From Vicinamibacterales bacterium (GTDB lineage: Bacteria > Acidobacteriota > Vicinamibacteria > Vicinamibacterales > 2-12-FULL-66-21), in assembly GCA_035495955.1 (NCBI GenBank), contig DATJFE010000067.1, positions 19,972 through 83,971 of the forward strand: a stretch of DNA of 64,000 nt. Reading direction: 5' to 3'. A program made the position numbers and the translations under genes. Below are positions 15,112 through 64,000 of this stretch, piece after piece (within the stretch, counting starts at the first letter, position 1; each line of letters opens with the position of its first letter). The notes beneath the pieces are model-generated. The model was not told the origin of the DNA. It worked only from the letters and a program-made list of their open reading frames with translations, and did not search any database.

Positions 15112-15222
15112 TCCGCAGCTCCCAACTCTCAGCTCCCCCATCCCCACTCCCAATCCGCGAGATCCGACATCCCACATCCGACCCCCGCCCCCGACCCCCG
15201 CCCCCCGACCCCCGACTCCCGA
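15112..15222. repeat. composite C-rich (on +) short-repeat tract between two minus-strand genes
   Basis: cagctcccaactctcagctcccccatccccactcccaatcc...gacccccgcccccgacccccgccccccgacccccgactcccgac. The right part (15182-15220) is a multi-tract G4 motif on the minus strand, directly after the HAD stop (15223-15225). Confidence 0.8.
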
Positions 15223-15879
15223 CTACAGGCGGCGGACGAACTCGGCCGTGATGGCATCCAGCGAGTCGACCACCACGTCGGCTTCGGTCAGCTTCTCGCG
15301 GGAATACGTGTGGGTCACCGCGATAGTCCGCATGCCCGCGCCGCGCGCCGACTGCAGCCCCCAGTGCGAGTCCTCGATCGCCGCGCAGCGCGCCGGATCG
15401 ACGCCGTGCAGTTCCGCGGCTCTGAGGTAGGGGTCCGGCGCCGGCTTGGTGCGTTCCGTATCGCCGGACGCGACGATGAAGCGGAACGCGCCGTCGAGGC
15501 CCGCGCCGCGCAGCATCAGCTCGATGTCGCGCCGCAGAGCGCCCGAGGCGATCCCGATCGGCCAGTGCGCCGACAGCCGGCGCACGCATGCGGCCGCGCC
15601 GCCATACAGGACGTCGGTGCCCGCGACGAGCGCCTCGAACCGGCGGCCCTTCTCGGCGATCAGCATCTCGATCTCCTCGTCGCCGAGCAGCAGTCCGTAA
15701 TCCGACGCCACCTGCCTGAACACGCCCTCGTCGTCGAATCCGAGATAGCGCGCGCAGTATTGCTCCTTCGTCAGCGAGACTCCGGCGGGCGCGAACAGTT
15801 CCTGATAAGTCCGCAGGTGGAGCGGCTCGGAGTCGGCCAGGACGCCGTCGAAATCGAAGACGATGGCTTTGATTGGCAT
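15223..15879 (-). CDS. HAD family hydrolase (beta-phosphoglucomutase/phosphatase-like)
   Basis: MPIKAIVFDFDGVLADSEPLHLRTYQELF... is the classic HAD motif I. ...IASGALRRDIE... then ...IEDSHWGLQSARGAGMRTIAV. ATG 15879 preferred; GTG 15915 is an alternative. Confidence 0.85.
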   Translation of the reverse strand: MPIKAIVFDFDGVLADSEPLHLRTYQELFAPAGVSLTKEQYCARYLGFDDEGVFRQVASDYGLLLGDEEIEMLIAEKGRRFEALVAGTDVLYGGAAACVRRLSAHWPIGIASGALRRDIELMLRGAGLDGAFRFIVASGDTERTKPAPDPYLRAAELHGVDPARCAAIEDSHWGLQSARGAGMRTIAVTHTYSREKLTEADVVVDSLDAITAEFVRRL

Positions 15880-36072: not shown

Positions 36073-36177
36073 CGGGTGACGGGGGACAGGGGAGGGGTGT
36101 CGGAGGACGACCTCCCCGACGCCCGACCACCCCCAACGCCCGACCTCCGACCCCCGACGCCCGACGCCGACGCCCGT
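36073..36177. repeat. G-rich arm / C-rich arm low-complexity tract filling the whole spacer between two convergent stops
   Basis: gggtgacgggggacaggggaggggtgtcggagg acga cctccccgacgcccgaccacccccaacgcccgacctccgacccccgacgcccgacgccgacgcccg. Canonical G4 motif on + at 36074-36097. Multiple GGG tracts on the minus strand at 36110-36176. Confidence 0.85.
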
Positions 36178-41522: not shown

Positions 41523-43690
41523 CGAATTTTAACCTGCCGCGCTTTCTCGGGTTCTCCGAACATCGTCCACAGTTGAGCCGCCAGCGCGCGTCCTTCGGGC
41601 GTCGGCGAGGCCCGCAGCAAATCGTCGATCGCCCGCTCGGAATCGGCGTCGCGCCCCATCGCGCGATACAGCATGGCGAGGCCGGCGCGGGCCCGGGTGT
41701 TGTGCGGAAAGAGGCGAATCTCTTCCTGGAAGCAGGGCTCGGCCTCCGGGTAGCGCTCGAGGTGAGCGAGGGAATCGCCGAGGTAATAGTTGAGCTCGTT
41801 GATCTGGATGGTGCGTCCGCGAAGCGCGTCGCGGGCCCGCATGAACGGCCCGAGCGCCTCGGCGTACCTGCCCTGGTTGTAGGCGATCAGCCCCTCGACG
41901 AACAGCGGCATCGGCAGCGTCGGATCCGCCTGCTGGGCGAGGCGGGCTTCGCGCAACGCGGCGTCGGGGTCGTGCCGCGCCAGCGCGATCTTGGCGAGCA
42001 GCTCGTGCGCCGCCGCGGGCGCGACGCTCACGGCGAGCTCCGCATGCTTCTGCGCTTCGTCGAGGCGGCCCAGTCGGAGCAGTCCGCCGCCCGCGCCGAG
42101 CAGGCTGCCCGCGTCCTTCGGATTGCGCTTGATCACTTCCCGGTACGCGCGCACGCCGTCTTCAGTGAGTCCCTGGCGCAGGCAGACTTCCGCGAGCTGG
42201 AGCCACGCGTCCGTCATTTCGGGATCGGCGGCGAGCAACTCGCGATAAAGAACCATCGCATCCGCGAACTTCAGCGCGCCCGCCAGGTCCGACGCGCGAC
42301 GATACTTTTCGAGGACCTGAATTTTGTCCTTCGGATCCGGCAGCGAATCGCCCGGCAGCGACAGCGACGCGCTGCTGCCGGTGCCGACGTAGCCCAGCGC
42401 CGCGAGGCGCTGGCGATCCTGCTCGTCGACGGCCGCCGGCGCCGCGATCGACGTCTTCGCAATCATCGATTCGAGCGCGCCGCGCATCGCCTGGCGGACC
42501 TGGGGCCGATCGGCGCCGATCGACTGCGATTCGGATCGATCGCGCTCCAGGTCGTACAGCTCGTCGCGCGGAGCGCGGATGAAGTGATACCGCGAATCGA
42601 CGAGCCCGTAAAGCTCGCTCCATCCGAAGTGGTACCGCGAATAGAGCGCTTCGGAATAGATGGGCGCATCCTGCAGGGCGCCGGTACCTTCGAGCAGTGG
42701 TCGCAGCGACCGGCCCCGGAGCTCCGTCCGCGCGGGCGCGCCGGCCAGATCGAGGATCGTCGGCGCCAGATCGATGTGCTGCACCGGCGCCGCCACGCGG
42801 CGTCCTCGATGGCGTCCGGGCAGCTTGACGATCAGCGGGACGCGGGTGGTTTCCTGATACAGAAACAAGCCGTGCTCCTGCTCGCCGTGATCGCCGAGAC
42901 CTTCGCCGTGATCCGCGAGCAATACGATCGTCGCGCGATCGTAGAGACCCGCGGATCGCAGGCGATCGAGGAAACGGCCGACCAGCTCGTCGCTGTAGGC
43001 GATCTCGCCGTCGTAGGGGCTGTAGGCGGCGAAGCGGGCCGGCGGCGCGTACGGCTTGTGCGGCTCGTAGAAGTGCAGGAACAGGAAGAACGGCTTCGCG
43101 CGATCGCGCGCGTCGATCCAGGAGATCGCCGCCGCCAGCGTCTTGTCGCCGCCGCGCTGAACCTGGCCGATCGATCGCTCGCCGGACGAAGCCGGCATGT
43201 CGCTGTCGTACGTATCGAATCCCTGATTGATCCCGGTTGCCGCGCGCAGCACGTACGCGGAGACGAACCCGCCGGTCGGCCACCCGCGCTCCTGCAGCGC
43301 GCGCTGGATGAACCATTGGCCCTTCTTGACCGTGAAGCCGACGTTGTCACGGACCCCGTGCTCGAAGGGGAGCTGGCCCGAAAGGAGACTGGTGTGGGCC
43401 GGAAGCGTCTGCGGCGCGTGCGACCAGGCGTGCTCGAACACGACGCCTTCGGCCGCCAGGGTATCGATGTTCGGTGTCCGGACTTTCGTATATCCGTACG
43501 CCGGAAGATGATCGGCGCGGAGCGTATCGATCGAGATCAGGACGATCGGTCCCGGCGCCGGCGGCCGCGTTGCCCGCCAGAGCGCCCAGGCCACGCCCAG
43601 AACGATGACCAGCGTGATGGCGATCCATGCAGCGCGCCTCGCCCCTCGCGCCTCGCGTCTCGGACCTCGCGGCTCGCGCCTCGCGCTCAT
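41519..43690 (-). CDS. sulfatase-like (alkaline phosphatase superfamily) hydrolase/transferase with N-terminal membrane anchor and C-terminal TPR domain
   Basis: ...IVLISIDTLRADHLPAYGY...NIDTLAAEGVVFEHAWSHAPQTLPAHTSLLSG... (Thr where Cys-type sulfatases have Cys), ...LLADHGEGLGDHGE..., then about 300 aa of TPR. ATG 43690 overlaps the upstream stop (ATGA). Confidence 0.85.
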   Translation of the reverse strand: MSARREPRGPRREARGARRAAWIAITLVIVLGVAWALWRATRPPAPGPIVLISIDTLRADHLPAYGYTKVRTPNIDTLAAEGVVFEHAWSHAPQTLPAHTSLLSGQLPFEHGVRDNVGFTVKKGQWFIQRALQERGWPTGGFVSAYVLRAATGINQGFDTYDSDMPASSGERSIGQVQRGGDKTLAAAISWIDARDRAKPFFLFLHFYEPHKPYAPPARFAAYSPYDGEIAYSDELVGRFLDRLRSAGLYDRATIVLLADHGEGLGDHGEQEHGLFLYQETTRVPLIVKLPGRHRGRRVAAPVQHIDLAPTILDLAGAPARTELRGRSLRPLLEGTGALQDAPIYSEALYSRYHFGWSELYGLVDSRYHFIRAPRDELYDLERDRSESQSIGADRPQVRQAMRGALESMIAKTSIAAPAAVDEQDRQRLAALGYVGTGSSASLSLPGDSLPDPKDKIQVLEKYRRASDLAGALKFADAMVLYRELLAADPEMTDAWLQLAEVCLRQGLTEDGVRAYREVIKRNPKDAGSLLGAGGGLLRLGRLDEAQKHAELAVSVAPAAAHELLAKIALARHDPDAALREARLAQQADPTLPMPLFVEGLIAYNQGRYAEALGPFMRARDALRGRTIQINELNYYLGDSLAHLERYPEAEPCFQEEIRLFPHNTRARAGLAMLYRAMGRDADSERAIDDLLRASPTPEGRALAAQLWTMFGEPEKARQVKIR
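43632..43687. repeat. cctcgcg-type short tandem repeat forming the first ~19 codons of the sulfatase-like gene
   Basis: gcgcgcctcgcccctcgcgcctcgcgtctcggacctcgcggctcgcgcctcgcgctc. On the minus strand it encodes MSARREPRGPRREARGARRA. Confidence 0.75.
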
Positions 43691-48548: not shown

Positions 48549-48597
48549 TCGGTCATCGGTCATCGGTCATCGGTCATCGGTCATCGGTTGTCGGCCA
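48549..48597. repeat. heptamer tandem repeat tcggtca x5 perfect + 2 variant, between convergent stops
   Basis: Counted unit by unit: 48549, 48556, 48563, 48570, 48577 (perfect), 48584 tcggttg, 48591 tcggcca. It starts 3 nt after TAG 48544-48546. Confidence 0.95.
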
Positions 48598-48605
48598 TCG
48601 TCCCG

Positions 48606-51765: not shown

Positions 51766-53139
51766 TTAGCTGGCGCCGGCCTCGCGCAGCTTCCTGAGGA
51801 TCCGGTCCTGAATCCAATGCTGGTCCCACCACTCGACTGGATTCACCATCTGGCCGTTGACGAGCATCGTGAAGTGCAGGTGATCGCCGCCGGCGAGCCC
51901 GGTCATGCCGCTCTTGCCCAGCTCCTGTTCCTTCTCGACCATGTCGCCGACCTTGACCGTGATCGTCGAGAGGTGCCCGTAGAGCGACTGGACGCCCATT
52001 CCGTGGTCGATGATCACGCAGTTGCCGTAGATGCCCAGCGGCGCCGCGTGGAGGATTTTGCCTCGATTCGCCGCGACCACGGGAGAATTGACGACGCGAG
52101 CGAGATCGAAGCCCAGGTGCGTCTGCCGATCGACCTCCTTGCCCTGATAGATGTAGGTGCGCTGATCGGCGAACGCCGCTTCGACGGCGGTGTTCGTGAA
52201 GGGATGAAAGACCGCTCCGCCCCAGAGGATCTCCGGCGCCGTCTGCTTCGCGTAGCCGGCGATCGTCTCGGCGTTCTTCCGCCGCAGCTCGCCGTTGAGG
52301 ACCAGGAACTTCTCGAGATTGCTGCCCTGCGGATTCACTTCCGTGGTGGTCTCGAGGATGGACGGGACGACGCGATCGAGGAACTTGTCGTCGAGCTGGA
52401 TGCGGCTCTTCTTGAACGGCTTCGGGAAGCTGAGGCGATCGAAATCGGCGCGCCCGCTGTTGCCCGCTTCGTCCCGCGCGAACGCGAACATCGGCGTATT
52501 CACGTCCTGGTCGTAGCGCAGCGCGAAGAACGCGATCTTCACGGCGGGATCGGTAATGTGGACGCCCTCGATCTTCGCGCCGCTGCCGGGATACCCCGGG
52601 TATTTCAGATCGCCGACCTGGACGCCGGACTCGACGTCGGCCGGCGTCACGCGATACACGACCATCTCGGATCCGCCGAGGTTGACGTAGTGCTTCGTCG
52701 AGAGGACGGCGATCTGCGGCCGCTCGAGCCGCACCTGGACGTCGCGCGCGGCGGTCGACTGCGCTTTGCGCAGGCCAAACAGCACGGGGCGCTCTGCGGT
52801 CACGAGAATCCGGGCCGCCCCGCTCTTCAGATCCGGAATGACCTGGCGGCCGATGCTGCGCGTGATCCGGACGCGATCGGCGCCGTCCTGCTTGACGTCG
52901 GCGGCCGGCTGGTCGAGCGAGAAAATCGGCGTCTGCTTGCCGTTCTGTTCGAACGCAATCTGAATCCGCGTGAACCGCGCCCGCGGCGCAGTCACCTCCA
53001 CCTCGACCGGCGTCGACTGGCCGACGTATTTGACGGGCTTGTCGATTTGAATGGCCGGGCCGGCCATCCGCCCGGCGTACACGAACATTCCACAGGCGAG
53101 GAGCACGATGACGAGCAGCAAGCCGAGCAGATAGCGCAT
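51766..53139 (-). CDS. M23 family metallopeptidase (LytM-like), membrane anchored
   Basis: N-terminal TM MRYLLGLLLVIVLLACGMFVY. C-terminal HLGFDLA...IIDHGMGVQSLYGHLS...GKSGMTGLAGGDHLHFTMLVNGQMVNPVEWW. Confidence 0.88.
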   Translation of the reverse strand: MRYLLGLLLVIVLLACGMFVYAGRMAGPAIQIDKPVKYVGQSTPVEVEVTAPRARFTRIQIAFEQNGKQTPIFSLDQPAADVKQDGADRVRITRSIGRQVIPDLKSGAARILVTAERPVLFGLRKAQSTAARDVQVRLERPQIAVLSTKHYVNLGGSEMVVYRVTPADVESGVQVGDLKYPGYPGSGAKIEGVHITDPAVKIAFFALRYDQDVNTPMFAFARDEAGNSGRADFDRLSFPKPFKKSRIQLDDKFLDRVVPSILETTTEVNPQGSNLEKFLVLNGELRRKNAETIAGYAKQTAPEILWGGAVFHPFTNTAVEAAFADQRTYIYQGKEVDRQTHLGFDLARVVNSPVVAANRGKILHAAPLGIYGNCVIIDHGMGVQSLYGHLSTITVKVGDMVEKEQELGKSGMTGLAGGDHLHFTMLVNGQMVNPVEWWDQHWIQDRILRKLREAGAS

Positions 53140-53228
53140 CTGTCGATGATAACCGCTCCTCCACGGCGCGACGGCATATGGGCTAGACTTCCTCGCGACG
53201 TCGACTGGAATCCCTCAAGGAGCGTTGA

Positions 53229-53663
53229 ATGGCGACTGTGGATGCACCGCGCGATGATCGGACGACGGATTCCTCGTCTCCGGCGAAACCGGCCGTCGAG
53301 GAGCGCCGCGTCAGCGCCTGGATCGGGCAGGGCGTCGTCGTCGAGGGGAAAATCACGAGCACGCAGGATCTCCGGATCGACGGCGCGGTCCAGGGCACGA
53401 TTGAGGTCGGCCGCCATGGACTGGTGATCGGAGCCAGCGCCGCCATTCGGGCCAACCTCTCCGCCAGGTCCATCCTCATCAGCGGCGCCGTGACCGGGAA
53501 CGTCGCGGCAACCGAGAGAATCGATCTTCAGCCCACGGCGTCGGTGGAAGGCGACGTCAGCGCGCCGCGCGTGGCCATGGCCGACGGCGCCGTCGTCAAG
53601 GGCAAAGTCGAGGCAGGCGGCAATCGCGTGGCGAAGCCGCGGACGGGCGAGCCGGAAGCTTGA
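53229..53663 (+). CDS. bactofilin family cytoskeletal protein
   Basis: ...WIGQGVVVEGKITSTQDLRIDGAVQGTIEVGRHGLVIGASAAIRANLSARSILISGAVTGNVAATERIDLQPTASVEGDVSAPRVAMADGAVVKGKVE shows DUF583 beta-helix periodicity. aaggag lies before the ATG. Confidence 0.88.
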   Translation: MATVDAPRDDRTTDSSSPAKPAVEERRVSAWIGQGVVVEGKITSTQDLRIDGAVQGTIEVGRHGLVIGASAAIRANLSARSILISGAVTGNVAATERIDLQPTASVEGDVSAPRVAMADGAVVKGKVEAGGNRVAKPRTGEPEA

Positions 53664-53709
53664 CCGGCTCGAAGAGCGCCGGTACAATCGAAAGTTCCGA
53701 CGGCCCTGT

Positions 53710-53784
53710 GCCGCTATCGTCTAGGGGTCAGGACACGTGGTTCTCAGCCACGGGACCGGGGTTCGAATCCCCGTAGCGGTACCA
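53710..53784 (+). tRNA. tRNA-Glu (anticodon CUC), CCA encoded
   Basis: Folded by hand. Acceptor gccgcta/tagcggt (G1-U71 wobble at the top), D stem gtct/ggac, anticodon stem cgtgg/ccacg, loop ttCTCag, 4-nt variable loop, T arm cgggg-ttcgaat-ccccg, discriminator A, CCA. Confidence 0.92.
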
Positions 53785-53804
53785 ACCTTCCAAGCCGAAG
53801 GCTT

Positions 53805-54082
53805 TCAGTTACTTCTAGAAATTTCCTTCGAGCCGTCAGAGTCTTCGGCGGGGTTCTGTTCGGTCGGAACTTGAAAGATTATTGAAAGTCTGTCCATAGC
53901 GTCAGTGACGGCGTCGAATGCCTTGCCGGTTTCGAGCCGTGCGACCGCGGCCTGCAGCGCTTCGAGCCGCTGGTTGTCGTAGCGCTCGGGTGCAGCTCGC
54001 GCCACTCGCACGCTGTGTAGATGGTGTCGCGGCTGACGCCGGCGTACTCGGCGCCCTCACTCACGGTGAACCAGATCTTCAT
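53805..54082 (-). pseudogene. excisionase/AlpA-type HTH gene, apparently frameshifted
   Basis: ATG 54082 after ggaggg. MKIWFTVSEGAEYAGVSRDTIYTACEWRELH then turns to compositional nonsense. The natural-looking continuation (P)ERYDNQRLEALQAAVARLETGKAFDAVTDAMDRL... is in another frame (ORF 53805..54011). The frame switch is near 53979-53998. Confidence 0.55.
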
Positions 54083-54802
54083 ACGGCCCTCCGCCCCGGT
54101 CCGCGTTCGCGGACCTCGAAACGAGTTGTGATGGGGAGTCACGGGCCAAGGCGCGCCGGGCGGCGCGGTGCCAGTGACAGGCGCGGGATGCTGGTGCGGC
54201 ACCAGCATCAAGTCGTGGGCATGTGGTGCGCACGGAACTTGGTGATGCGTCCCGGCTGAGGGCTTGGGCCGTCGGTCGGAACGCGCTCCGCAGGTGGTGC
54301 CGCGGAGGGGGTGCTCTCAGAGCACCGATGCCAGCAGGATAGGACCGAGCGAAACCGGCGTCAACCTCAACGGCCGTGAGGGCAGACGTCTGCCGGCGTG
54401 GCACTGTCTCAGCCCCGATGCGCTTCGACGTGGCGCGACGCACGGGCTCATCGTGATACCGCGCGCGCAGGCCGTGCCGACATCAACGAGCAGTTTCGTG
54501 ACGGTGTCGATCAACGATCATCTTCGCGAGCTGGTTCATACGCGCAGGCGATTCGGTCTGGTCATGGCGTTCGGCGCAAAACAACGATCAACTTCCACGC
54601 ACCGAGGAGGATGGCGAGGGTGATGGTGGCGCCGACGAGCCAGGCGCGCCAATCGTCGGAAACCGCAAACACGATCCGCGTGGGTAGCCAGCTCGCAAAC
54701 GTCATCGGCCCTCGCCAGCTTGTACTTTTCGGCAGACAGCGTCAAACCTGAGACAGTGCCGCGGGCGTTGACATCATATCGAGGAAGCTCTACCTTCGAG
54801 CC

Positions 54803-55048
54803 ATGGGGACGCTGCCGATCAAGTCAGAGAGGCTCGCTGAACTCGAGGAGTTTGCACGCCGACGCGGAAAGACGCCCGCGGATGCCCTCGACGAAGCGTT
54901 GGCCGAATACCTGGAGTGGGAGCGTCAGGACTACCAGCAGGCCGTCCAGGCGGTTCAGCAGGGCATCGAGGACGTGAAAGCTGGCCGCACGAAGCCCGCC
55001 GAGGAGTGCCTCGACGAATTCGCGCGGAAGCATGGCCTTTCGCGTTGA
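54803..55048 (+). CDS. type II antitoxin (ParD/RelB-like)
   Basis: 81 aa: MGTLPIKSERLAELEEFARRRGKTPADALDEALAEYLEWERQDYQQAVQAVQQGIEDVKAGRTKPAEECLDEFARKHGL. It overlaps the toxin gene by 17 nt. Confidence 0.75.
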   Translation: MGTLPIKSERLAELEEFARRRGKTPADALDEALAEYLEWERQDYQQAVQAVQQGIEDVKAGRTKPAEECLDEFARKHGLSR

Positions 55049-55352
55049 ACTCTCCGGCCAAGCGCAGCGCGACATCTCCGCAATCTACGATTGGCTTTGT
55101 TCGCAGCAGGCTGGAGATGCCGGCGAACGCTGGTTCCGCGCTCTACGCACGGCGATTGGATCGTTGGCAGACATTCCAGCCCGGTGCCCGCTTGCAGCGG
55201 AAGATCGAGACGCACCCGTAGAAGTTCGCCAACTGCTCTACGGTCGTCGACCGCATACCTACCGCATCCTATTCACGATCGAAGGCGACGTCGTTCAGGT
55301 GCTGCACGTCCGCCATGCGCGGCGGCGGCCGGCCGCGATCCAGCCTCGGTGA
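55032..55352 (+). CDS. type II toxin, RelE/ParE family
   Basis: 106 aa: MAFRVELSGQAQRDISAIYDWL...ERWFRALRTAIGSLADIPARCPLA...VRQLLYGRRPHTYRILFTIEGDVVQVLHVRHARR. Confidence 0.8.
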   Translation: MAFRVELSGQAQRDISAIYDWLCSQQAGDAGERWFRALRTAIGSLADIPARCPLAAEDRDAPVEVRQLLYGRRPHTYRILFTIEGDVVQVLHVRHARRRPAAIQPR

Positions 55353-55370
55353 GCGCGTAGGGAAATTGTT

Positions 55371-55505
55371 ATGAAGCGCACGGGATCGGCAAGAAGGGAT
55401 TTAAGCGCAAGCGGTACCTCGACGAGAGGTAAGGCCGGGGCGACTCCGACGTTTGCGGTCTGTGTCCGCAACGAGGGATACGAGGCATCGCTCGAGCGCA
55501 ATAAG
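55371..55505 (+). pseudogene. 5' fragment of a small conserved-looking gene (…TPTFAVCVRNEGYEASLERNKI…), truncated
   Basis: The reading frame loses protein-like character at about 55505, the same point where the opposing permease fragment ends. Confidence 0.3.
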
Positions 55506-55507
55506 AT

Positions 55508-56046
55508 CAGCCGAATCGTGCGACCGATCACGTTCGAGTCGGCCCCGAACGCTCTGCGCCACAACCCATCACTGATTACAGCCTCCTGGGATTGAAAGGA
55601 ATCGCTCTCCGTGAACACACGGCCGAGCGACGCCTGTACGCCGACGAGCGTGAAGAAGTTCGGCGTCGCGAACGCGCCACGCAATCGGTCTGCGCGGTCC
55701 GTGGCAATCAGATCGAATTCAGGTGAAAGTTCATGTTTCCAGATGACAACGGTGGCGAGGCTCTCGAAGGACCGGCTGTACGCGCGCCAGTCCAGGAACG
55801 CGCCAGCGCTTTGGGGACCGTCGGATGGATCGTAGGTGCTACTGGCGCCGCCGCCGGTGTTCGCCTTCCACACAACCACGACACGATCCGGATCTCGGAA
55901 TGTTAGCGGCCGAAGGAGCACGCTCCGACGAGCGCAAGGACGGCGCCGTTCAGCCCGATACCGAGGCCAAGAGTGAGGACCGTCGCCGTCGCGAAGCTAC
56001 GATTGCGGACGAGCAGTCGGCCGGCGAACCGCAGATCCTTGCTCAT
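55508..56046 (-). pseudogene. N-terminal fragment of an ADOP/MacB-like permease gene, with a 1-nt frameshift and 3' truncation
   Basis: MSKDLRFAGRLLVRNRSFATATVLTLGLGIGLNGAVLALVGA (frame of ORF 55903..56244) continues as VLLRPLTFRDPDRVVVVWKAN...FLDWRAYSRSFESLA...NFFTLVGVQASLGRVF...AVISDGLWRRAFGADSNVIGRTIRL in the frame of ORF 55295..55921. Family resemblance stops near 55508. Confidence 0.7.
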
Positions 56047-56146
56047 TGCCGTGGGATTCCTCGGAATCGTGATCCTGGTCGCCGCGTATGTCCCGGCACG
56101 TCGCGCCCTCATGATCGAACCTCTCGCCGCGCTCCGCGACGAATAG
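56045..56146 (+). pseudogene. isolated 3'-terminal fragment (33 codons) of an FtsX/ADOP permease gene
   Basis: IAVGFLGIVILVAAYVPARRALMIEPLAALRDE* is the typical C-terminus of this family. The upstream in-frame sequence is not permease-like. The fragment begins exactly at the start codon of the opposing pseudogene. Confidence 0.55.
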
Positions 56147-56568
56147 ATAGGAATCGCCGAGCTGTCCGACTGACGTTGGGGAGAACGTTTGGCGAGAAGG
56201 GATGCTGTCACCGAATCGGGACCACGATGAGGTGCTTCCCGCAAATGATAGGTCGCCGGAAGTCGGCAAGGGTAGAGGAATCAACGGGTCAGGGCCGGTA
56301 AACCCGTCGGCGTTGTTCTCGACCTATCTGGAAAGGAATCGCGTTGGCCAGGCGTGCTACTTGGCGCCTCCGCCGATGTAGATGCACGCGTCAGCGACTT
56401 TGGCCGAGGTGAGCGTACTACCCTTCAATCTGCGCTGGGCCAATGCGTGCAAGGAGCGTGGTCGCCCGAGCTCCCGCTCCCACAACGCCAAAGACAGGCG
56501 CCGGCGGCCCGCCCTGCGCCTTCAGCAGAGTCGTAGTCGCGCCACCGTGCCGAGGAATTCGCGTCTGT

Positions 56569-57861
56569 TCATGGACGTGGTGTCAACCTGCCACAACATC
56601 TCTTGTACTTCTTGCCGCTGCCGCACACACAGGAATCATTTCGTCCGCGCACCCGATCCATGACATTGGCAGGAGGTCGTTGCTGACGAAACTCTTCGGC
56701 CATGAATCGCATGTAGGGATCGATGTGCTTGAAGAAGATCTTGTAGCCGGCGCACAAGTAATTCAGCCCCTCTTCCCCGTCTGGCGTTCGAACGAACCGG
56801 TGCTTTGGACACTCACCATTGCAGGCAAAGCGGACCTCACACGCACGACAATATTCGGGCAGCGTGTCTCTCTTATCAAGGCCGAATCTGCGCTGCTGTG
56901 CTGAGTTGACGAGGACTCCCAGCGGGTTTTCCCTGATGTTGCCGAGTCTGTTCTCCGGATATACGTAGTGGTCGCACGAGTAGAGGTCGCCGTTGTGTTC
57001 GATCGCCATGGCCGAACCGCACGTCTCGCGGAAGACGCACAGACTCGGCTGCATCCCGAGCCAACTTTGCAGCGCAACGTCGAAGATCTGAACGTAATGT
57101 CGCCCCACGTCGTGTCGAACCCACTCGTCGAAGATGCTGTTTAGGAATCTCCCGTACTGTACGGGCTCCACGGACCACGCCGACACTTGCGCCCGCGTCG
57201 GGTAACCAGGACCGATGAGCGTCAGACCATCGGCGGGGGATTCAGCAATCCTTTCGACGATCGGGATGAACTGCATGAATCCGCTGCCTACCTCTTTCAG
57301 GAAGCGATAGACCTCGAGCGGGTGGTACGAATTATCGCGCTGCACGACCGTTAGCGTGTTGAACTCGACGCCGTGCTTTTTCAGGCAGCCGAGTCCGCGC
57401 ATGACTTTGTCGAACGTAGGCTGGCCGCCTTTGTCGACGCGGTACTTGTCGTGCAGCTCCCGGGGACCGTCGATCGAGAGCCCCACCAGAAATCCGTTCT
57501 CGGCCAGAAACTCGCCCCACTCATCGTCGACAAGAACGCCGTTGGTCTGGAACGCATTCTCGATGCGCTTCCCTCCGGCGTACTTCTTTTCAAGCAACAC
57601 AGCCTTGCGGAAATAGTCCACACCGAGCAGCGTTGGCTCACCCCCTTGCCAGGCGAAGGTTATGACTGGGACGGACTGCGCTTCGATGTACTGGCGTATA
57701 TACGCTTCCAGGACCTCCTCCGGCATCGACCAGGTCGTGTTCCTCGGATAGAGGTTTTCTTTTTCAAGGTAGAAGCAGTACTTGCAATCCAAGTTGCAGA
57801 TCGGGCCGATCGGCTTCGCCATGACGTGAAAGGCCCGAAGCCGATCGGAGGCCGGCGCCAT
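56569..57861 (-). CDS. anaerobic sulfatase-maturating enzyme (radical SAM/SPASM) with C-terminal SEC-C-like zinc motif
   Basis: ...FHVMAKPIGPICNLDCKYCFY (CxxxCxxC)..., ...FAWQGGEPTL..., SPASM cysteines ...CVFRETCGSAMAIEHNGDLYSCDHY...CRACEVRFACNGECPKHR..., tail CVCGSGKKYKRCCG. ATG 57861; GTG 57891 is an alternative. Confidence 0.9.
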   Translation of the reverse strand: MAPASDRLRAFHVMAKPIGPICNLDCKYCFYLEKENLYPRNTTWSMPEEVLEAYIRQYIEAQSVPVITFAWQGGEPTLLGVDYFRKAVLLEKKYAGGKRIENAFQTNGVLVDDEWGEFLAENGFLVGLSIDGPRELHDKYRVDKGGQPTFDKVMRGLGCLKKHGVEFNTLTVVQRDNSYHPLEVYRFLKEVGSGFMQFIPIVERIAESPADGLTLIGPGYPTRAQVSAWSVEPVQYGRFLNSIFDEWVRHDVGRHYVQIFDVALQSWLGMQPSLCVFRETCGSAMAIEHNGDLYSCDHYVYPENRLGNIRENPLGVLVNSAQQRRFGLDKRDTLPEYCRACEVRFACNGECPKHRFVRTPDGEEGLNYLCAGYKIFFKHIDPYMRFMAEEFRQQRPPANVMDRVRGRNDSCVCGSGKKYKRCCGRLTPRP

Positions 57862-57904
57862 CACGCGCGATCCTTCACGTCCTCGCCCCACTCATCGTGC
57901 AATT

Positions 57905-59413
57905 TCAAGCGATGGGGTTCCACGCCAGAAGCCGCGAGCGCAGGTCGGCGGCCTTGGCGGCGTATTGCGGCTCCGCGGCCACGTTGTGCAATTCGTCAGG
58001 GTCGGATTCCAGGTTGTACAACTCCGGTATATCGTGCGCCCAGCAGGTGTATTTCCAGGCGCCGTCGCGGATCATGGTCTTCGCGTTGCGGCTGGGCAGC
58101 GCATATTCGGCAAATACGGGACCAGGATCCTTTCGCGTCTTCGGATCTTCGATCCACGGCACCAGGCTCGTCCCGTCGTTCGGAGCGACCTGTGCCACTC
58201 CTGCCAGCGCTGTCAGTGTGGCGGAGAGCGAGACCAGGCTGACCGGCGCTGCGCACACCCCGGCCGCGCGTCCCGGCACGCGGATGAGAAGCGGCACGCC
58301 GCATGACCCTTCGTAAAACTGGAACTTCTGCCAAAGACCGAGCTCGCCCAGCATTTCACCGTGATCGGACGTATAGCAGACAATCGTATCGTTTTCCAGG
58401 TTCAGTTCCTTGATCGCGGCCAGCACTTGGCCGAGGCAATCGTCCATCTGGGCCAGGTTGGCGTAATAGTAGGCGATGTGCTCGCGAGCCCGGTCGGGGT
58501 CGGCGACTTCGGGTGTAGGGCCGTTGTTCTCGATGGATCGAATCACTTCTTTGGGAAGGCGGCTCTTGTCGGCCTTCCCGAAGCTGCGCGGGAGCTGCAT
58601 CTGTTCGGCGCGGAACATGTCGGCGAAGCGCTGTGCCGGCATGAACGGATCGTGGGGCTTGAGAAAAGAGGAGACCAGAAAGAACGGTTGACTGGATTTA
58701 CCGAAGCGTCGTAGGAAACGGATGGATTCACGGGCCACGAAGCTTTCGAAATGGTCCTTCTCTTCCAACAGGGAAACGCGTCCGATCCCGACCGAACCCT
58801 TCCGCACGTCCAGATTGCGATGCCCCTTCCAGGGATCGTCCTCGTCGCGCCACAGGTCGTCGATTTCCGGAAGTCCCGAGCCCGAGTTGGGCTGCCCCAG
58901 TTCGTCGGCAAAAAGCTGCGTCTTCGGTCCCAGGTATTGGAACCAGTCGTTGAAGTCCAGCTTGTAGTCGAACCCGTGCGTCTGCGCGTCCACGAAATGC
59001 ATTTTTCCGATCAGCGCCGTCACGTACCCGGCCGCGCCGAAATGGTGCGCCATCGTGCGCCGCAGCGGCGAGAACGGCGTGCCGTTGTTCTGCGCTTCGA
59101 AGTGGTGATTGTAGAGGCCGGTCAGCATAGAAGCCCGCGACGGCATGCAAACCGGGTTGGTGCAATAGGCGTTGGTAAAGCGGACCGCGCTGCGCGCCAA
59201 TTGGTCCAGGTTCGGCGTCTTCGCCACTGGATCGCCGTACGCGCCCATACAGGTGCGTTTGTGCTGATCGGCCATCAGCAGCAGAACATTCGGACGCTTG
59301 CCGCCCGGCTCCTGTGTACTGCGCCCCCCTTGCGGCGCCGCGAATAGCGCGGGCACCCGCACGCCCGCCAAACTTGCGGCGGCTACATTCGCTAGGAATC
59401 TCCTGCGGTGCAT
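57905..59413 (-). CDS. Cys-type (formylglycine) sulfatase with twin-arginine signal
   Basis: MHRRRFLANVAAASLAG... (Tat-like), ...NVLLLMADQH..., signature CTNPVCMPSRASMLTG (C-x-P-S-R), ...YTSDHGEMLGE... Confidence 0.9.
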   Translation of the reverse strand: MHRRRFLANVAAASLAGVRVPALFAAPQGGRSTQEPGGKRPNVLLLMADQHKRTCMGAYGDPVAKTPNLDQLARSAVRFTNAYCTNPVCMPSRASMLTGLYNHHFEAQNNGTPFSPLRRTMAHHFGAAGYVTALIGKMHFVDAQTHGFDYKLDFNDWFQYLGPKTQLFADELGQPNSGSGLPEIDDLWRDEDDPWKGHRNLDVRKGSVGIGRVSLLEEKDHFESFVARESIRFLRRFGKSSQPFFLVSSFLKPHDPFMPAQRFADMFRAEQMQLPRSFGKADKSRLPKEVIRSIENNGPTPEVADPDRAREHIAYYYANLAQMDDCLGQVLAAIKELNLENDTIVCYTSDHGEMLGELGLWQKFQFYEGSCGVPLLIRVPGRAAGVCAAPVSLVSLSATLTALAGVAQVAPNDGTSLVPWIEDPKTRKDPGPVFAEYALPSRNAKTMIRDGAWKYTCWAHDIPELYNLESDPDELHNVAAEPQYAAKAADLRSRLLAWNPIA

Positions 59414-59871
59414 CGCTTCTTTCTTCGCTCCAATGGAATCGAAGAGTATCGCCGCCCTGGTCCCGTGTAAAGCGGCTAATCTTCGTTACCCTGCCGCTCG
59501 TCCCGAAGATCCGTACCGGTGTAGGTCGGACATCTTTTCCGTCTTTTCGGCTGCGAGCTGCTTGCGTCGTCGCCTACCTTCGCGGATTGCCTGCGTTTGC
59601 GCGAATGAAGCCGCGCCAGCTCGCGTCGTTGGATGGATCGCAATTCACGATCGGATTGGTTTGTTGGGTGTCGGTCACAGTCGGGTGGAGTGGCCGGCCA
59701 TCGCGCGGTTCAGGGTGGAGCTGTGCTCGTCGCCGTCAACGCTCTCCGCTGCGCTCCGACCGCGCGTGCGCGCGGCCTCCGGGCGTTGACGGCGGCTCCG
59801 CGCAGCTCATCGATCACATCTGCGCGATGACCCGTATGCGCACTCCGAGCCGCCATGGATCAGCGCGACGG

Positions 59872-62316
59872 CTATGCGTGCCGCAACACCTGTGCCGGGT
59901 CGGCCTGTGATGCACTCCGTGCTGGCAGCCAGCCGGCGACGACGCTGCTCGCCACGAGTAAGAATGCACCGGCTCCGAGGGTGAAGAAATCCTGCGGCTG
60001 AACACCGTAGAGCAACGTGGAAACGAGTGGCGAAACCCAGAGACTCGCAATGGCGCCGAGCGCCACGCCCATCGCGACCTGCAACCCGACGCGTCGAAGG
60101 ACCATTACAACGATGACGCCCGGCGCCGCCCCGAGCGCCAGCCGAACTCCGATTTCAGCACGTCGGCGACTGACACCGTAAGCCGTCACGCCATACAGCC
60201 CAAGCGCGGCAAGCAGCAGCGCCAGTCCACCGAAGAGTCCCGAGAGAATCGCGATTACACGCTCTTGAGCAACCGAGCTGTCGATCTGTTCTGATAGCAG
60301 TCGCGGCGAGAGCCGCGCTTCAGGATCGACCGCGCTGATGGCATGAACGACGCCGGGTCCCAGGAGTGCCGGCGCGCCTCCAGCTGCACGCACGCTGATA
60401 TTGATATACGGCGGCGGCTGTGAACGTTGCGCGATCGGAAGATACACGGTCGGCTCATGCACATCTCGAAGGGTGCGATAGACGGAATCCTCCGCGCAGC
60501 CGACAATCTCACGTTCGGTTGTCGGCCGGCCCGCGTAACCGGCCTGGCGGATGTGCTGACCGACAACACATCGCCCTCCGAGGTACTTCTTGACGAACGA
60601 TTCGTTCACGATCACGACCGGCGGCGCGAGCCGTCCATCAGATCGGCCGAATTCGCGTCCTGTCAGCAGGCGTGTGCCCAGCGTCGAAAAATAGTTCGGC
60701 CCGACGAGATTCGCGACCATGCTCCGTTCGCTTTCCGGCATCGACGGCGCATCGCGTACGTCGAGCAGAAATTGCCAGAGCATCCCGTTCACCGGGGTCA
60801 TCGCCGATATGGTCGCGCTCGCGACACCAGGCACCTCGGCAGCTGCGGTCCGCAGGCGCTCAAATTCAGCAAGCGCAGCCTCTGGCGACGCGCTGCGAAA
60901 GTCGCTGTCGACGCGCACCGTGAACACGCGATCGCGATTCACGCCGACGTGTTGCTTCGTAAGGGCCAGGAACGTTCGGATGAACAATCCGGCGGAGAAC
61001 ACGAGCACCATCGCGAGCGCGACTTGAGCCACCATGATCAGCTGGCTCGACGAGACGCTGCGACCTCCCATGACGTTTCGCGCGTGCTCCTTGAGCACGT
61101 CGCTCGCCTGTGTCCGCGCTGCACCCAGGGCCGGTGCCGTGCCGAACAGCACTGCGGTCCCCAGCGTCACTGCAACCGTGAACGCGAGGACTCGCCAGTC
61201 GACCGAGAGGTCAAGAGAAATGAGGCGGTTGAAGGTTGACAGCTGTTGCACGAGCAGACGGCTGCCCCACACAGCACCACATAGTCCGATGGCGGCGCCG
61301 ATGCCCGCTAGCAACAGACTTTCGGACGCCAACTGCGCTGCTAACTGTCGACCCGACGCGCCGAGTGCCCGACGCACGCTCAGCTCATGTCGTCGCGATA
61401 GCGTACGTGCCAGAAGCAGGTTGGCGACGTTGGCGCACGCGATCAAGAGTACCAGAAAGGTGATCGCCAGTAACATTATCAACGGTCGCTGATACTGGGC
61501 GCCAAGCTGCGAAGGGCCCTGAGAGACAGGCACGAGCTCGAATGGGGCAGCCAGGTACTCCGCCGCCTCCTGCCCACTATACGTGCTGGGCACCGTGGCC
61601 ATGCGAATGCCCGACTGGATCCCGCGAAGGGATGCCGTGCTCGCCGCGAGGGACTGGCCGGGCCGACCTCTCACGATGACCTTCACCCACCAGGCTGTCG
61701 GAGCAGACACGAGGGAAGGACTCCCGTGAAGTAACGGCTCGGCACTGTACGGCACGGCCACATCAAACCCCGTTCCGACATCGAGCCCTAAGAACCGTGA
61801 CGGTACAACGCCGACGATCGTGAATGGATGCCGGCCGACCACGAGGGTCGTCCCGATCACATCTGTCCTGCCCGCAAATTTGCGCTGCCACAACCTGTGG
61901 CTGATCATGGCCACGGGGTTGTTGCGACCCTCGGCGCGGTCGTCGGCCATCGAGATAGCCCGGCCCATTTCAGCGGTCACACCCAGTATCTCGAAAAAGC
62001 CGCCACTGACGAACACGCCATCGACAAACTCGGACTCGCCGCGTGGCGACAGATCGAACCGCTCCTCCGACCAGGCGCCAACTCCGTCAAAAAGCTCCTG
62101 ATGCTGCTGAATCTGTTGCCAGATCGGGAACGTCAGGAGGCCCTGTGGACTCTGGGGGGACGAAACGAACGCCAACCGATCGCGGTCGTGCACGGGCAGC
62201 GGGCGGAGCAGAAGGCTGTCGATAATCGAGAAGATCGTCGCGTTGGCGCCGATCCCGAGCGCACAGGACACGATCGCCACGAATGACAACAGCGGAGACG
62301 ATCTAAGGAAATGCAT
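59872..62316 (-). CDS. ADOP family duplicated permease (MacB-like, two FtsX domains)
   Basis: 814 aa. ...SFVAIVSCALGIGANATIFSIIDSLLLRPLPVHDRDRLAFV..., two FtsX modules (...LLIACANVANLLLARTLSRRHELSVRRALGA... and ...YGVTAYGVSRRRAEIGVRLALGA...). Confidence 0.9.
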   Translation of the reverse strand: MHFLRSSPLLSFVAIVSCALGIGANATIFSIIDSLLLRPLPVHDRDRLAFVSSPQSPQGLLTFPIWQQIQQHQELFDGVGAWSEERFDLSPRGESEFVDGVFVSGGFFEILGVTAEMGRAISMADDRAEGRNNPVAMISHRLWQRKFAGRTDVIGTTLVVGRHPFTIVGVVPSRFLGLDVGTGFDVAVPYSAEPLLHGSPSLVSAPTAWWVKVIVRGRPGQSLAASTASLRGIQSGIRMATVPSTYSGQEAAEYLAAPFELVPVSQGPSQLGAQYQRPLIMLLAITFLVLLIACANVANLLLARTLSRRHELSVRRALGASGRQLAAQLASESLLLAGIGAAIGLCGAVWGSRLLVQQLSTFNRLISLDLSVDWRVLAFTVAVTLGTAVLFGTAPALGAARTQASDVLKEHARNVMGGRSVSSSQLIMVAQVALAMVLVFSAGLFIRTFLALTKQHVGVNRDRVFTVRVDSDFRSASPEAALAEFERLRTAAAEVPGVASATISAMTPVNGMLWQFLLDVRDAPSMPESERSMVANLVGPNYFSTLGTRLLTGREFGRSDGRLAPPVVIVNESFVKKYLGGRCVVGQHIRQAGYAGRPTTEREIVGCAEDSVYRTLRDVHEPTVYLPIAQRSQPPPYINISVRAAGGAPALLGPGVVHAISAVDPEARLSPRLLSEQIDSSVAQERVIAILSGLFGGLALLLAALGLYGVTAYGVSRRRAEIGVRLALGAAPGVIVVMVLRRVGLQVAMGVALGAIASLWVSPLVSTLLYGVQPQDFFTLGAGAFLLVASSVVAGWLPARSASQADPAQVLRHA

Positions 62317-62328
62317 CTGAGACGGATT

Positions 62329-62505
62329 TTAGCCCGGCAGGGTGGGAACGCCGGCCTGAGTCTGCGCTGCCGCGTCGGCGAGCGAGGCTTCGTATCGGTC
62401 CTTGATCGTCTTCAGTTCGCGGCTCGTCGCGTGCGCAGTAAAGCGGAGATCTTCGAGTTCTTTCTCCTCAGCGTCCGCCCGTTCTGATCGACGAGATCTG
62501 TCCAC
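62329..62505 (-). CDS. hypothetical small coiled-coil protein, 12 nt upstream of the ADOP permease; start uncertain (GTG 62505 or ATG 62643)
   Basis: Only the C-terminal part looks protein-like: DRSRRSERADAEEKELEDLRFTAHATSRELKTIKDRYEASLADAAAQTQAG. No family recognised. Confidence 0.3.
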   Translation of the reverse strand: MDRSRRSERADAEEKELEDLRFTAHATSRELKTIKDRYEASLADAAAQTQAGVPTLPG

Positions 62506-62664
62506 TGCGCTCGATGGGTGAGTACGGCAGGTCACCTTCACTTGAAAGAAACTTGAAACTCTGCGCACGAAAAGGGCCGTTTCGACCGGAGACGGCCGAA
62601 GCGACTGTGCGAATTTCCTAAGAAAACCGACGCAGCCGGACACCGCCGACGTGTCCGGTTGCGT

Positions 62665-62711
62665 TTCTCAGCCACGGGACCGGGGTTCGAATCCCCGTAG
62701 GGGTATACCAA
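62665..62711 (+). repeat. direct repeat of the 3' half of tRNA-Glu (att-like site)
   Basis: ttctcagccacgggaccggggttcgaatccccgtag is identical to 53741-53776. It continues gggtatacca versus cggtacca in the tRNA. There is no matching 5' half or anticodon stem upstream, so this is not a second tRNA. Confidence 0.85.
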
Positions 62712-62934
62712 TATTCTTCGAGGGGCTTCGCTCCTCGAACTCCCCGACACGCGCTCTCGCTCGCGCTGGGCCGTTCGCGTGGCCCACCGGAATGAGGGTC
62801 ACTACGGTCACCCCTTCTCCCTCGCCATTAAGGAACCGCAGGATCTAGTCTTAGTGACGAAGACTTACAGTACTGATTCGCTCGAACTTCTCGACTATTT
62901 GCGTGGTGAAGCGGATGGGGCTATAACCCACCCC

Positions 62935-64000
62935 ATGTGGTTACTCTCGCACGACCTCCGGCTCGCGTGTCGCCGCTTGCGTCTTGCGCCGGGTTTCACC
63001 CTGTTTGCTGTGGCGTCGCTCGCCCTTGGCATCGGCATCACGACGGTCGTCTATTCGGGCGTGCGTACGTTGCTGTGGAGGCCGCTCGGCGTCCCGAATG
63101 CGGAGCAGTTGATGGCCGTTCGGAACGGACGCAACTGGCAGTCGGCGTCGTGGCCGGATTTCACCGATCTTCGCCAGCAGCAGACGACGTTCCGCTCGCT
63201 TGCCGCTGTCTATCCGATCACGACGGCGATCGGTGCCGGAGATGGATCGCAGACGATTCTGGCTGAGGCTGTGTCCGGGGATTACTTCGCCGTTGCCGGC
63301 GTGCGAGCGCGGCTCGGACGTTTGCTCGACGCCGTCGACGAGTCGGAAGGTGCGCGTGTCGTGGTCGTGTCCGAATCGTTCTGGGAGGTGAATCTGCACG
63401 CCGAGCCTTCCGCGATCGGGCGGACGATCAAGATCGGCGGCGAAGCATTCGAGCTCGTAGGAGTCGTTGCTGGACCTTTTCACGGACTGCAGCCGATCTT
63501 CCCGCACTCGGCGTGGCTACCCGTGACCGCCATCCCTCGCAATTCAGTGGGGTTCCGAGTGCCACGAGGGTTCTTGGAACAACGGGCGGCACCTGCCTTT
63601 GAAGTCTGGGGACGACTCCGATCTCCGCGTGATTTCGGAAACGCGAGCGCGGAAGTTGCGTTGATTGGCCGCCGGCTCGAAGCCGCGTATCCCAAGGATG
63701 AGCAGCGCGGTACTCGGCGCCAATGGCGGGTGCAGGCGGACGCCGCAACGCCGCCGGATAACGAGAGCCGGTACACGATCGTCTTTATGATCCTGACGGG
63801 GATCGCGACCGTCCTGCTGATCGCGTGCACGAATCTGGCGAATCTGGCGCTCGCCAAGGGGACCGCGCGCGCGCAGGAGACCGCCATCCGAACCGCACTG
63901 GGCGCGAGCCGGTGGCGTTTGATCCGCGAGCAACTCATCGAGGCGCTCCTCATCGTCGGAACGGGTGGTTTGCTCGGCGTGCTCGTCATGCTCCAGGCAG
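62935..64000 (+). CDS. ADOP/MacB-like permease, N-terminal 355 aa; continues beyond right window edge
   Basis: My translation from ATG 62935 is stop-free to 64000: MWLLSHDLRLACRRLRLAPGFTLFAVASLALGIGITTVVYSGVRTLLWRPLGVPNAEQLMAV...GDYFAVAGVRARLGRLL...VVVSESFWEVNLHAEPSAIGRTIKIGGEAFELVGVV...LIACTNLANLALAKGTARAQETAIRTALGASRWRLIREQL... It is not in the ORF track because it has no stop in the window. Confidence 0.85.
   Translation, partial: MWLLSHDLRLACRRLRLAPGFTLFAVASLALGIGITTVVYSGVRTLLWRPLGVPNAEQLMAVRNGRNWQSASWPDFTDLRQQQTTFRSLAAVYPITTAIGAGDGSQTILAEAVSGDYFAVAGVRARLGRLLDAVDESEGARVVVVSESFWEVNLHAEPSAIGRTIKIGGEAFELVGVVAGPFHGLQPIFPHSAWLPVTAIPRNSVGFRVPRGFLEQRAAPAFEVWGRLRSPRDFGNASAEVALIGRRLEAAYPKDEQRGTRRQWRVQADAATPPDNESRYTIVFMILTGIATVLLIACTNLANLALAKGTARAQETAIRTALGASRWRLIREQLIEALLIVGTGGLLGVLVMLQA

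Follow-up and report, generated by a model that had tools for sequence, protein, structure and literature searches.

Small elements that carry an integrase gene (int), an excisionase gene (xis) and addiction cargo are known as P4-like or AlpA-type islets and as the pSAM2-like elements of actinomycetes. A neighbouring category, the ‘cis-mobilisable element’ (CIME), was first described for ICESt1-related elements of Streptococcus thermophilus, and the anticodon loop of tRNA genes was reportedly described as an integration sublocation by Williams in 2002. Islands catalogued by Islander at tRNA and tmRNA genes (PMC4383910) display a regenerated tRNA gene and a displaced tRNA fragment, a block of identity between the two that begins at the anticodon loop and extends to the 3' end, and a tyrosine integrase gene at the tRNA-proximal end, whose own 3' end overlaps the attachment arm. 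The stretch of DNA analysed here (‘the window’, 64,000 nucleotides (nt) from a Vicinamibacterales bacterium) contains a segment of 8.9 kb, beside its tRNA-Glu(CTC) gene, that resembles such islands in all of these features but differs from them in that its integrase is reduced to the last ~61 codons. It is very probably a decayed integrative element that entered at the anticodon-loop position of the tRNA gene, lost both int and xis, can no longer excise itself, and persists as a CIME-like remnant.

The sole tRNA gene of the window lies at 53710-53784 on the forward strand (ARAGORN, with which the Rfam tRNA model agrees at 58.2 bits), and an identical gene is found in more than 40 Vicinamibacterales genomes. 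The original prediction, made from the letters of the sequence, held that the 3' part of this gene is repeated exactly and in the same orientation at the far end of the segment. This proved correct: the 36-mer TTCTCAGCCACGGGACCGGGGTTCGAATCCCCGTAG has exactly two copies in the window, at 53741-53776 and 62665-62700 on the same strand, with no third copy in the window even when three mismatches are allowed, and not one of 100 dinucleotide-preserving shuffles of the window produced a match at that same tolerance, so that the repeat is not expected by chance. Its first base is tRNA position 32, where the anticodon loop begins, and an identity block that begins there fits the anticodon-loop sublocation. 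Identity reaches 41 nt with one substitution, and with a 2-nt insertion the similarity extends to the CCA end, as had also been predicted (GTAGCGGTACCA in the tRNA, GTAGGGGTATACCA in the fragment). The window therefore holds the intact tRNA gene and the displaced, directly oriented 3' fragment by which an Islander-type tRNA island is defined; the left attachment site, attL, consists of the host's 5' half of the gene and the element-derived 3' half from 53741 onward.

Comparison with other loci (designated L005 to L132, and drawn from GTDB genomes or metagenome contigs) identified the corresponding empty site. The 36-mer was found at 48 loci of GTDB genomes, nearly all of them metagenome-assembled genomes of Vicinamibacterales or Acidobacteriota and most of them representing intact tRNA-Glu genes; no GTDB contig among the 48 loci carries it twice. 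Upstream of the tRNA gene the window encodes an M23 peptidase and a bactofilin, and 16 of the 48 loci share this upstream synteny (M23 peptidase gene, 72-80% nucleotide identity). At the closest of them (L028, M23 peptidase gene 80% identical), the tRNA is directly followed by ...TTCGAGGGGCTTCGCCCCTCGAACTCC..., a sequence that in the window follows the fragment (62712-62778) and not the tRNA; the same downstream sequence is found at L049, and its identity to the window is 85-89% over 114 nt when the tRNA 3' half is included. Because the native downstream sequence of these two loci sits after the fragment in the window, the 8.9 kb are an insertion relative to them, and the island is absent from the same site in relatives (L028, together with the downstream sequence of L049). 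Where syntenic loci continue past the tRNA, an integrase lies directly downstream in 4 of 14 and is missing from that position in the other 10.

The composition of the segment, which the original prediction had judged by eye to be lower in GC, does deviate when it is calculated. Its GC content is 0.620 over the enclosed 8,880 bp (53785-62664), as opposed to 0.665 for the rest of the window, and none of 449 upstream windows of 8.9 kb is as low (minimum 0.637); the GC content at third codon positions (GC3) is 0.64-0.77 for the enclosed genes and 0.82-0.92 for flanking core genes. The predicted lack of core-type short tandem repeats was likewise borne out by Tandem Repeats Finder, which reported about 20 short arrays between 1 and 51 kb (mostly heptamers, in 4-9 copies) and none between 50950 and 63829. 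Those arrays are scattered over the core part of the window, from 11380 to 50949 (for example at 48549-48600, TCGGTCA x7.4, and at 43633-43686, 36115-36176 and 15178-15223), and are absent from the island.

The genes that would have driven integration are present as remnants. At several loci with intact elements (L011, L023, L025, L041 and L039), sequence related to window positions 53785-53989 lies directly after the tRNA, where a long frame, read on the opposite strand, has its 3' end. The product of that frame at L011, a 449-amino-acid integrase (PF00589, E = 5e-24; also phrog_1), matches the window by tblastn over residues 376-449 (53987-53808, E = 9e-20), with no other match to the rest of the protein anywhere in the 64 kb. 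The tail retains the ERY motif that contains the catalytic tyrosine, and its stop codon lies 20 nt from the tRNA. Next to it is the start of an excisionase-type helix-turn-helix (HTH) gene, which matches Pfam HTH_17 over profile positions 1-31 of 51 only, below the cut-off, whereas the intact 69-residue homologue of L011 and L051 scores above the cut-off in both PF12728 (HTH_17) and TIGR01764 (‘excise’). Its frame starts at 54082, passes out of register after codon 31, and terminates at 53879, within the int tail. The original prediction of an excisionase-like HTH gene 20 nt from the tRNA was therefore only partly right: the HTH_17 remnant exists, while the frame at 20 nt is the int tail and the HTH gene is broken off at codon 31, so that the supposed single gene is really two gene remnants joined by a deletion. 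Similarly, the claim that no integrase-like frame is present holds for everything beyond this tail, and fails for the last ~61 codons of int themselves, at 53805-53989 on the reverse strand. A six-frame Pfam search of 53785-56600 recovered no other recombinase remnant.

The extent of this loss can be read from an alignment of the window with L011, L049 and L025 (alignment A1), in which the window lacks ~1290 columns that the others possess, a gap that opens immediately behind the ERY codons in int and closes at codon 31 of xis; the same breakpoint (53989/53990) is seen against L110. An exact-sequence look-up of the two small open reading frames (ORFs) at the junction found neither on record. 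The junction is no peculiarity of one assembly. A contig from a different JGI metagenome (L132) is 100% identical to window positions 52777-54024 and extends 35 nt beyond the junction; a third sample contributed a 3.3-kb contig that carries the M23 peptidase gene, the bactofilin gene and then a 68-codon gene at the exact offset of the remnant, with no long gene in the 756 nt left after it; and the junction of ParE, ADOP fragment and maturase further into the segment is reproduced in another sample. Together these show the decayed form to be a genuine genotype that recurs, and no product of misassembly. With both recombination genes deleted, the segment is unable to excise itself, and the view that it is immobilised or decayed is upheld, by way of a single deletion that truncated int and xis together.

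Both attachment arms, by comparison, are still in place. In the left (P') arm, the block containing the CTTGAAAgattATTGAAA repeat is invariant across the window, L011, L049 and L025 in alignment A1, and its motif also follows int in relatives that are specific for tRNA-Gln. The right (P) arm contains CTTGAAAgaaaCTTGAAA, which has the 11-nt period of CTTGAAAgattATTGAAA, together with a 12-bp hairpin (62632-62662) directly next to the crossover region. This arm, of ~130 bp, is part of a segment (62536-62705) that is 80-92% identical to the sequence to the left of tRNA-Glu fragments at five other loci (L005, L013, L042, L071 and L123); no tRNA was called at the fragments of L005, L013 and L042, and L071 contains a complete 5.6-kb element between its tRNA and its fragment, with the same arm. 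The CTTGAAA repeats of the two arms are candidate arm-type binding sites for Int. Since CTTGAAA is only marginally enriched in the window (6 found, 2.4 expected), the argument for such sites rests on their conservation across elements.

From these observations, and from the way in which tyrosine integrases that target tRNA genes normally work (Islander, PMC4383910), a sequence of events can be proposed. The element's attP site would have carried the 3' half of the tRNA gene; recombination within the 7-nt anticodon loop would have regenerated the gene at attL (53741-53784) and displaced the host's original 3' half by 8.9 kb, to attR (62665-62711). Later, an illegitimate deletion of ~1.29 kb joined xis at codon 31, out of frame, to the final ~61 codons of int and so destroyed both recombination genes at one stroke. 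Two further backbone genes (A and B, described below) were also lost from the interior, which now houses lower-GC cargo: a truncated ADOP permease gene, a sulfatase gene with that of its radical-SAM maturase, and a full ADOP permease gene. By analogy with other type II toxin-antitoxin systems, the ParDE pair would make the loss of the segment costly. The coordinates of these features are collected in Table 1.

Table 1. Features of the tRNA-Glu-associated segment and its boundaries (positions in the window; strand given where one applies).
Feature	Position	Strand	Description
tRNA-Glu(CTC)	53710..53784	+	target gene forming attL, probably regenerated on integration; ARAGORN, Rfam
attL repeat copy	53741..53781	+	exact over 36 nt; 41 nt with one mismatch; begins at anticodon loop base 1
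int 3' remnant	53805..53989	-	tyrosine recombinase, last ~61 codons (ERYDNQRLEALQAAVARLE...SRSN*); tblastn, alignment A1; stop codon 53805-53807
P' arm repeat	53868..53890	+	CTTGAAAgattATTGAAA, 11-nt period, inside int tail; candidate arm-type integrase binding site
Deletion junction	53989..53990		~1.29 kb; removed int codons 1 to ~388 and the xis 3' half; ~1 nt microhomology
Truncated xis	53990..54082	-	excisionase-type HTH_17 gene, first 31 codons MKIWFTVSEGAEYAGVSRDTIYTACEWRELH; Pfam, alignment A1
Non-coding backbone	54083..54802		between xis and toxin-antitoxin pair; no domain by six-frame Pfam
ParD/RelB-like antitoxin	54803..55048	+	81 aa; weak profile matches below cut-offs
ParE toxin	55032..55352	+	106 aa; PF05016, 47.9 bits (cut-off 23)
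Last backbone segment before cargo	55365..55508		89% identical to L110 and L052
ADOP permease pseudogene	55509..56244	-	TIGR03434 positions 2-169 of 803; one frameshift; truncated where backbone resumes
Anaerobic sulfatase-maturating enzyme	56569..57891	-	radical SAM/SPASM; NF010308, 527.7 bits (cut-off 484); Pfam Radical_SAM, SPASM, SEC-C
Cys-type sulfatase	57905..59413	-	502 aa; PF00884, 188 bits; CMPSR motif; RRRF twin-arginine-like leader
S	59691..59837	+	147-nt conserved structured element; covariance model; opposite strand to int remnant; between sulfatase and permease
ADOP-family duplicated permease	59872..62316	-	814 aa, nearly full length; TIGR03434, 738.8 bits (cut-off 622), positions 12-802
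Conserved right end (P arm)	62536..62664	+	CTTGAAAgaaaCTTGAAA at 62541-62558; 12-bp hairpin 62632-62662
attR	62665..62711	+	displaced tRNA-Glu 3' fragment; exact over 36 nt, then one substitution and 2-nt insertion, then CCA
Original tRNA-downstream sequence	62712..62778	+	hairpin GAGGGGCTTCGCTCCTC; directly after intact tRNA in L028 and L049

The window element belongs to a larger family, of which a metagenome scan with the L011 integrase returned 266 relatives. Target sites were read from the metagenome loci scanned for tRNAs: integrases 75-100% identical to that of L011 lie 20-170 nt from tRNA-Glu(CTC) and are convergent with it on every contig that extends past int, those 64-73% identical lie mostly at tRNA-Gln(CTG) (with a few, L068, L071 and L083, at tRNA-Glu), and those 53-57% identical lie at tRNA-His. 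Intact relatives carry int and the excisionase gene immediately 3' of the same tRNA; in larger members, toxin-antitoxin modules and two conserved genes, A (~300 codons) and B (~345-385 codons), are found upstream of xis (at L051 1-1847, L057 212-2184, L106 3391-5552, L061 6778-7932 and L025 5301-7591 on the reverse strand), and protein B displays the motif FGFTERQARFL..VL.H.GVF..RQY. Neither protein has a significant match among Pfam, NCBIfam, PHROG or PDB sequences, the only match being a sub-threshold winged helix in A, and protein B has no meaningful match among the known plasmids of PLSDB. The family is a set of typical, previously undescribed integrative elements specific for tRNA-Glu. 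At three loci (L078 1339-5069, L090 and L091), the integrase gene borders on a tRNA-Gln that is represented by its 3' fragment only; at L078 the full gene is 2.4 kb further away. Such loci are either attP-like junctions or arrays formed in tandem or by accretion.

Measured against this family, the window element has the conserved right arm of ~130 bp abutting the tRNA fragment, and has int and xis beside tRNA-Glu(CTC) as remnants only. The interior seen in larger members, in which S comes after genes A and B and lies on the int strand, is not found there: A and B have no blastn match between the window element and the family loci and no such ORF among those listed and scanned, and S (described below) is on the opposite strand, between cargo genes. 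What remains of the backbone is recognisable at the DNA level, with 53989-54376 being 82-92% identical to L011, L049, L051 and L110, and the antitoxin gene 81-89% identical to its counterparts in L011, L039, L049, L051 and L110. This homology ends at 55508, exactly where the truncated ADOP gene begins, and contig L131 ends exactly at 55507.

Against the described systems named at the outset, the comparison runs as follows. As in a CIME, the att sites that arose when the element integrated at the 3' portion of a tRNA gene are intact, the recombination genes are deleted, and adaptive or addiction cargo is kept; attL and attR persist (with identical 36-nt cores and both the P' and P arms), and the genes for integration, excision and transfer are lost. 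Since the att cores and both arms remain, the segment is a CIME by definition (PMC5704250). It departs from the described examples in that its host is an uncultured member of the Acidobacteriota and in that any mobilisation in cis would be proposed by analogy; moreover, because no relaxase or type IV secretion genes were seen in the relatives, the parent element is not a recognised integrative and conjugative element or integrative and mobilisable element. Like P4-like, AlpA-type and pSAM2-like elements, those of the family are small (from 5.6 kb to over 10 kb in the relatives), have an HTH_17/AlpA-type xis immediately upstream of int, and carry toxin-antitoxin modules; they differ in proteins A and B, which lack a significant match, and in possessing their own 147-nt S, which is absent from Rfam. 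No phage structural, packaging or lysis domain was found in any scanned ORF, so a prophage is not indicated. As regards the Islander-type definition, an island is also expected to contain a tyrosine integrase gene, of which only residues 376-449 are encoded here, and with the integrase cut to its last ~61 codons, automated island finders that are anchored on integrases would miss this one.

The remaining contents of the segment are as originally described, namely a ParDE-type pair, gene fragments, and a sulfatase, maturase and permease cargo. The antitoxin gene precedes parE and overlaps it by 17 nt, which is the ParDE layout, and a protein identical to the ParE toxin is encoded on two other metagenome contigs. 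The permease pseudogene gives TIGR03434 matches on two ORFs (55903-56244 and 55295-55921); it was considered as a recent duplicate of a neighbouring ADOP gene and rejected as such, being only 28-29% identical to the window's two other ADOP genes. The predicted function of the sulfatase and its maturase rests on an equivalog match of the latter above its cut-off together with a C/S-x-P-x-R motif in the former (CMPSR, read from the translation); an identical sulfatase occurs on two JGI contigs, and the maturase has a C-terminal SEC-C zinc-binding motif (residues 417-435, PF02810, E = 2e-8) that lies past the end of the equivalog model. An exact-sequence look-up of the 814-residue permease found none on record, and an ORF upstream of it (62329-62643), considered as a PadR remnant, was discarded for want of Pfam or NCBIfam support.

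Both flanks of the tRNA also seem to be variable. Just outside attR a third ADOP-family permease gene (62935-64000, forward strand) runs off the window; its GC3, at 0.75, is lower than in core genes. What lies beyond tRNA-Glu is different in each relative that was examined, as might be expected at a general hot spot of variation. On the other side, the bactofilin gene (53229-53663, forward strand) is without a DNA-level counterpart at the syntenic position in several relatives, and the flanks of that position are only 40-60 nt apart in L018 and L028; this suggests that a second variable spot exists on the upstream side of the tRNA. At L049 (809-2330) the tRNA-Glu gene is followed by the native downstream sequence, a 1-kb gene and, 1.4 kb further, the left end of a family element (which begins with GTAGCGGTACCA), with the 1.4-kb stretch bracketed by the 9-mer GTAGCGGTA. 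This arrangement may represent integration at a secondary site or insertion into attL.

Another feature of the family is S, a segment of ~147 nt found in many members, 0.6-2.4 kb upstream of int. Its fold, predicted by RNAalifold, is a long interrupted hairpin, and a covariance model built from nine copies finds a single copy in the window, which at 144.7 bits forward (37.6 reverse) is among the best-scoring of all copies. Strong copies occur only in element-bearing loci, with one marginal exception (L027, 21 bits, E = 0.008). Across 24 copies, in an alignment fitted to the model and hence favourable to the structure, 92% of cells pair and 29 of 44 pairs show compensatory changes; none of 500 shuffles reaches the observed pairing values, and controls in which the structure was slid collapse. 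The conserved U-G pairs and the asymmetry in score point to one functional strand, and a variation in loop length that is not a multiple of three argues against a coding sequence. S was also considered as a member of a known RNA family and set aside, as it has no Rfam match at E <= 1; it has no meaningful match among the known plasmids of PLSDB. Further copies lie at L051 2352-2494, L061 8360-8516, L073 268-417 and L025 4588-4735 (reverse strand), with about 20 more elsewhere, and some elements contain two, in direct or inverted orientation.

Taken further, these observations would describe a family of small elements that is abundant in soil Acidobacteriota and is characterised by A, B and S together, with S as a new functional structure that is still used or selected. 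This broader proposal is plausible, albeit with somewhat less than even prospects of being correct. If it is true, S could be a single-strand origin or an origin of transfer (oriT) for the movement of single-stranded DNA, or alternatively a new non-coding RNA, and its near-consensus form inside a gutted element would mean that it is still in use or under selection.

Several observations weigh against the description of the window segment as a decayed member of this family. The ParD-like antitoxin scores below the curated cut-offs (PSK_trans_fac, 25.1 bits with a cut-off of 28.3; an NCBIfam RelB-like model, 26.8 bits with a cut-off of 50). The displaced tRNA fragment has two changes in its last 11 nt and none in its first 36, a more uneven spread than neutral decay would suggest. 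Nothing that corresponds to the cargo is present in the ~130 related loci examined. S, which in nearly all relatives lies on the int strand downstream of gene B, is inverted here relative to int, and this implies that the interior has been rearranged. Finally, the window stops 1.3 kb past attR, which leaves room for a larger composite island.

The competing explanation that survives best is that the remnant is still mobile, in cis or in trans, as a functional CIME or satellite for which Int and Xis would come from a sibling element, located elsewhere in the same genome or integrating next to it. Mobilisation of this type is known for CIMEs (PMC5704250), and the window element retains what such a process would use: att cores that are identical over 36 nt, two arm regions with conserved CTTGAAA repeats, and an S copy that is among the best. 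The family, moreover, contains tandem or fragment-adjacent arrangements (L078, L090/L091), and its integrases are abundant in soil metagenomes, as the 266 relatives attest. The window itself, however, encodes no second family integrase in its 64 kb, its second P' repeat carries a mismatch (ATTGAAA) and the 3' end of its attR has decayed; the 36-mer has no match in IMG/VR, and no attP junction of this element was seen. Furthermore, the presence of the same deleted form in several samples suggests a fixed chromosomal state. Continued mobility is accordingly regarded as unlikely, though not far-fetched.

A further possibility is that the segment is the tRNA-proximal unit of a larger tandem island that extends past 62711 and past the end of the window, and in which a functional integrase could lie downstream. 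The gene after attR is indeed another ADOP permease of low GC3, homology to the empty-site genomes stops ~70-110 nt after the tRNA or the fragment, and tandem accretion occurs in the family (L078). On the other hand, the sequence after attR is the native tRNA-downstream sequence of the empty-site genomes, which marks a true end of the unit; within this family, int is always found directly at the tRNA end of its unit, the position of the remnant; and the tRNA-downstream region differs among all relatives examined. A larger island of this type is thus quite improbable. The idea that the repeat dates back to a tandem duplication of the tRNA or to an ancestral arrangement, for which the bare fact of a directly repeated tRNA part might speak, has next to no likelihood and is already contradicted by a fragment that starts exactly at the anticodon loop, by a preceding arm of ~130 bp that is common to elements in five other genomes or contigs, and by the integrase tail abutting the tRNA, the empty site and the deviating composition.

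Integration by a tyrosine recombinase at the anticodon-loop sublocation, as first proposed for this locus, is therefore favoured by the empty site at L028, the intact relatives, the right arm shared with five loci and the departures in GC and GC3. As a CIME-like remnant of such an event the island is itself ordinary; it reveals, at single-base resolution, how an element integrated at a tRNA gene can become fixed while its att sites are left intact. It is also a source of variation in sulfatase and ADOP-permease genes in the Vicinamibacterales, a dominant uncultured group of soil bacteria. The wider value lies in the family to which it belongs, with its clade of integrases specific for tRNA-Glu(CTC), its two proteins without a recognised fold and its covarying motif outside Rfam.

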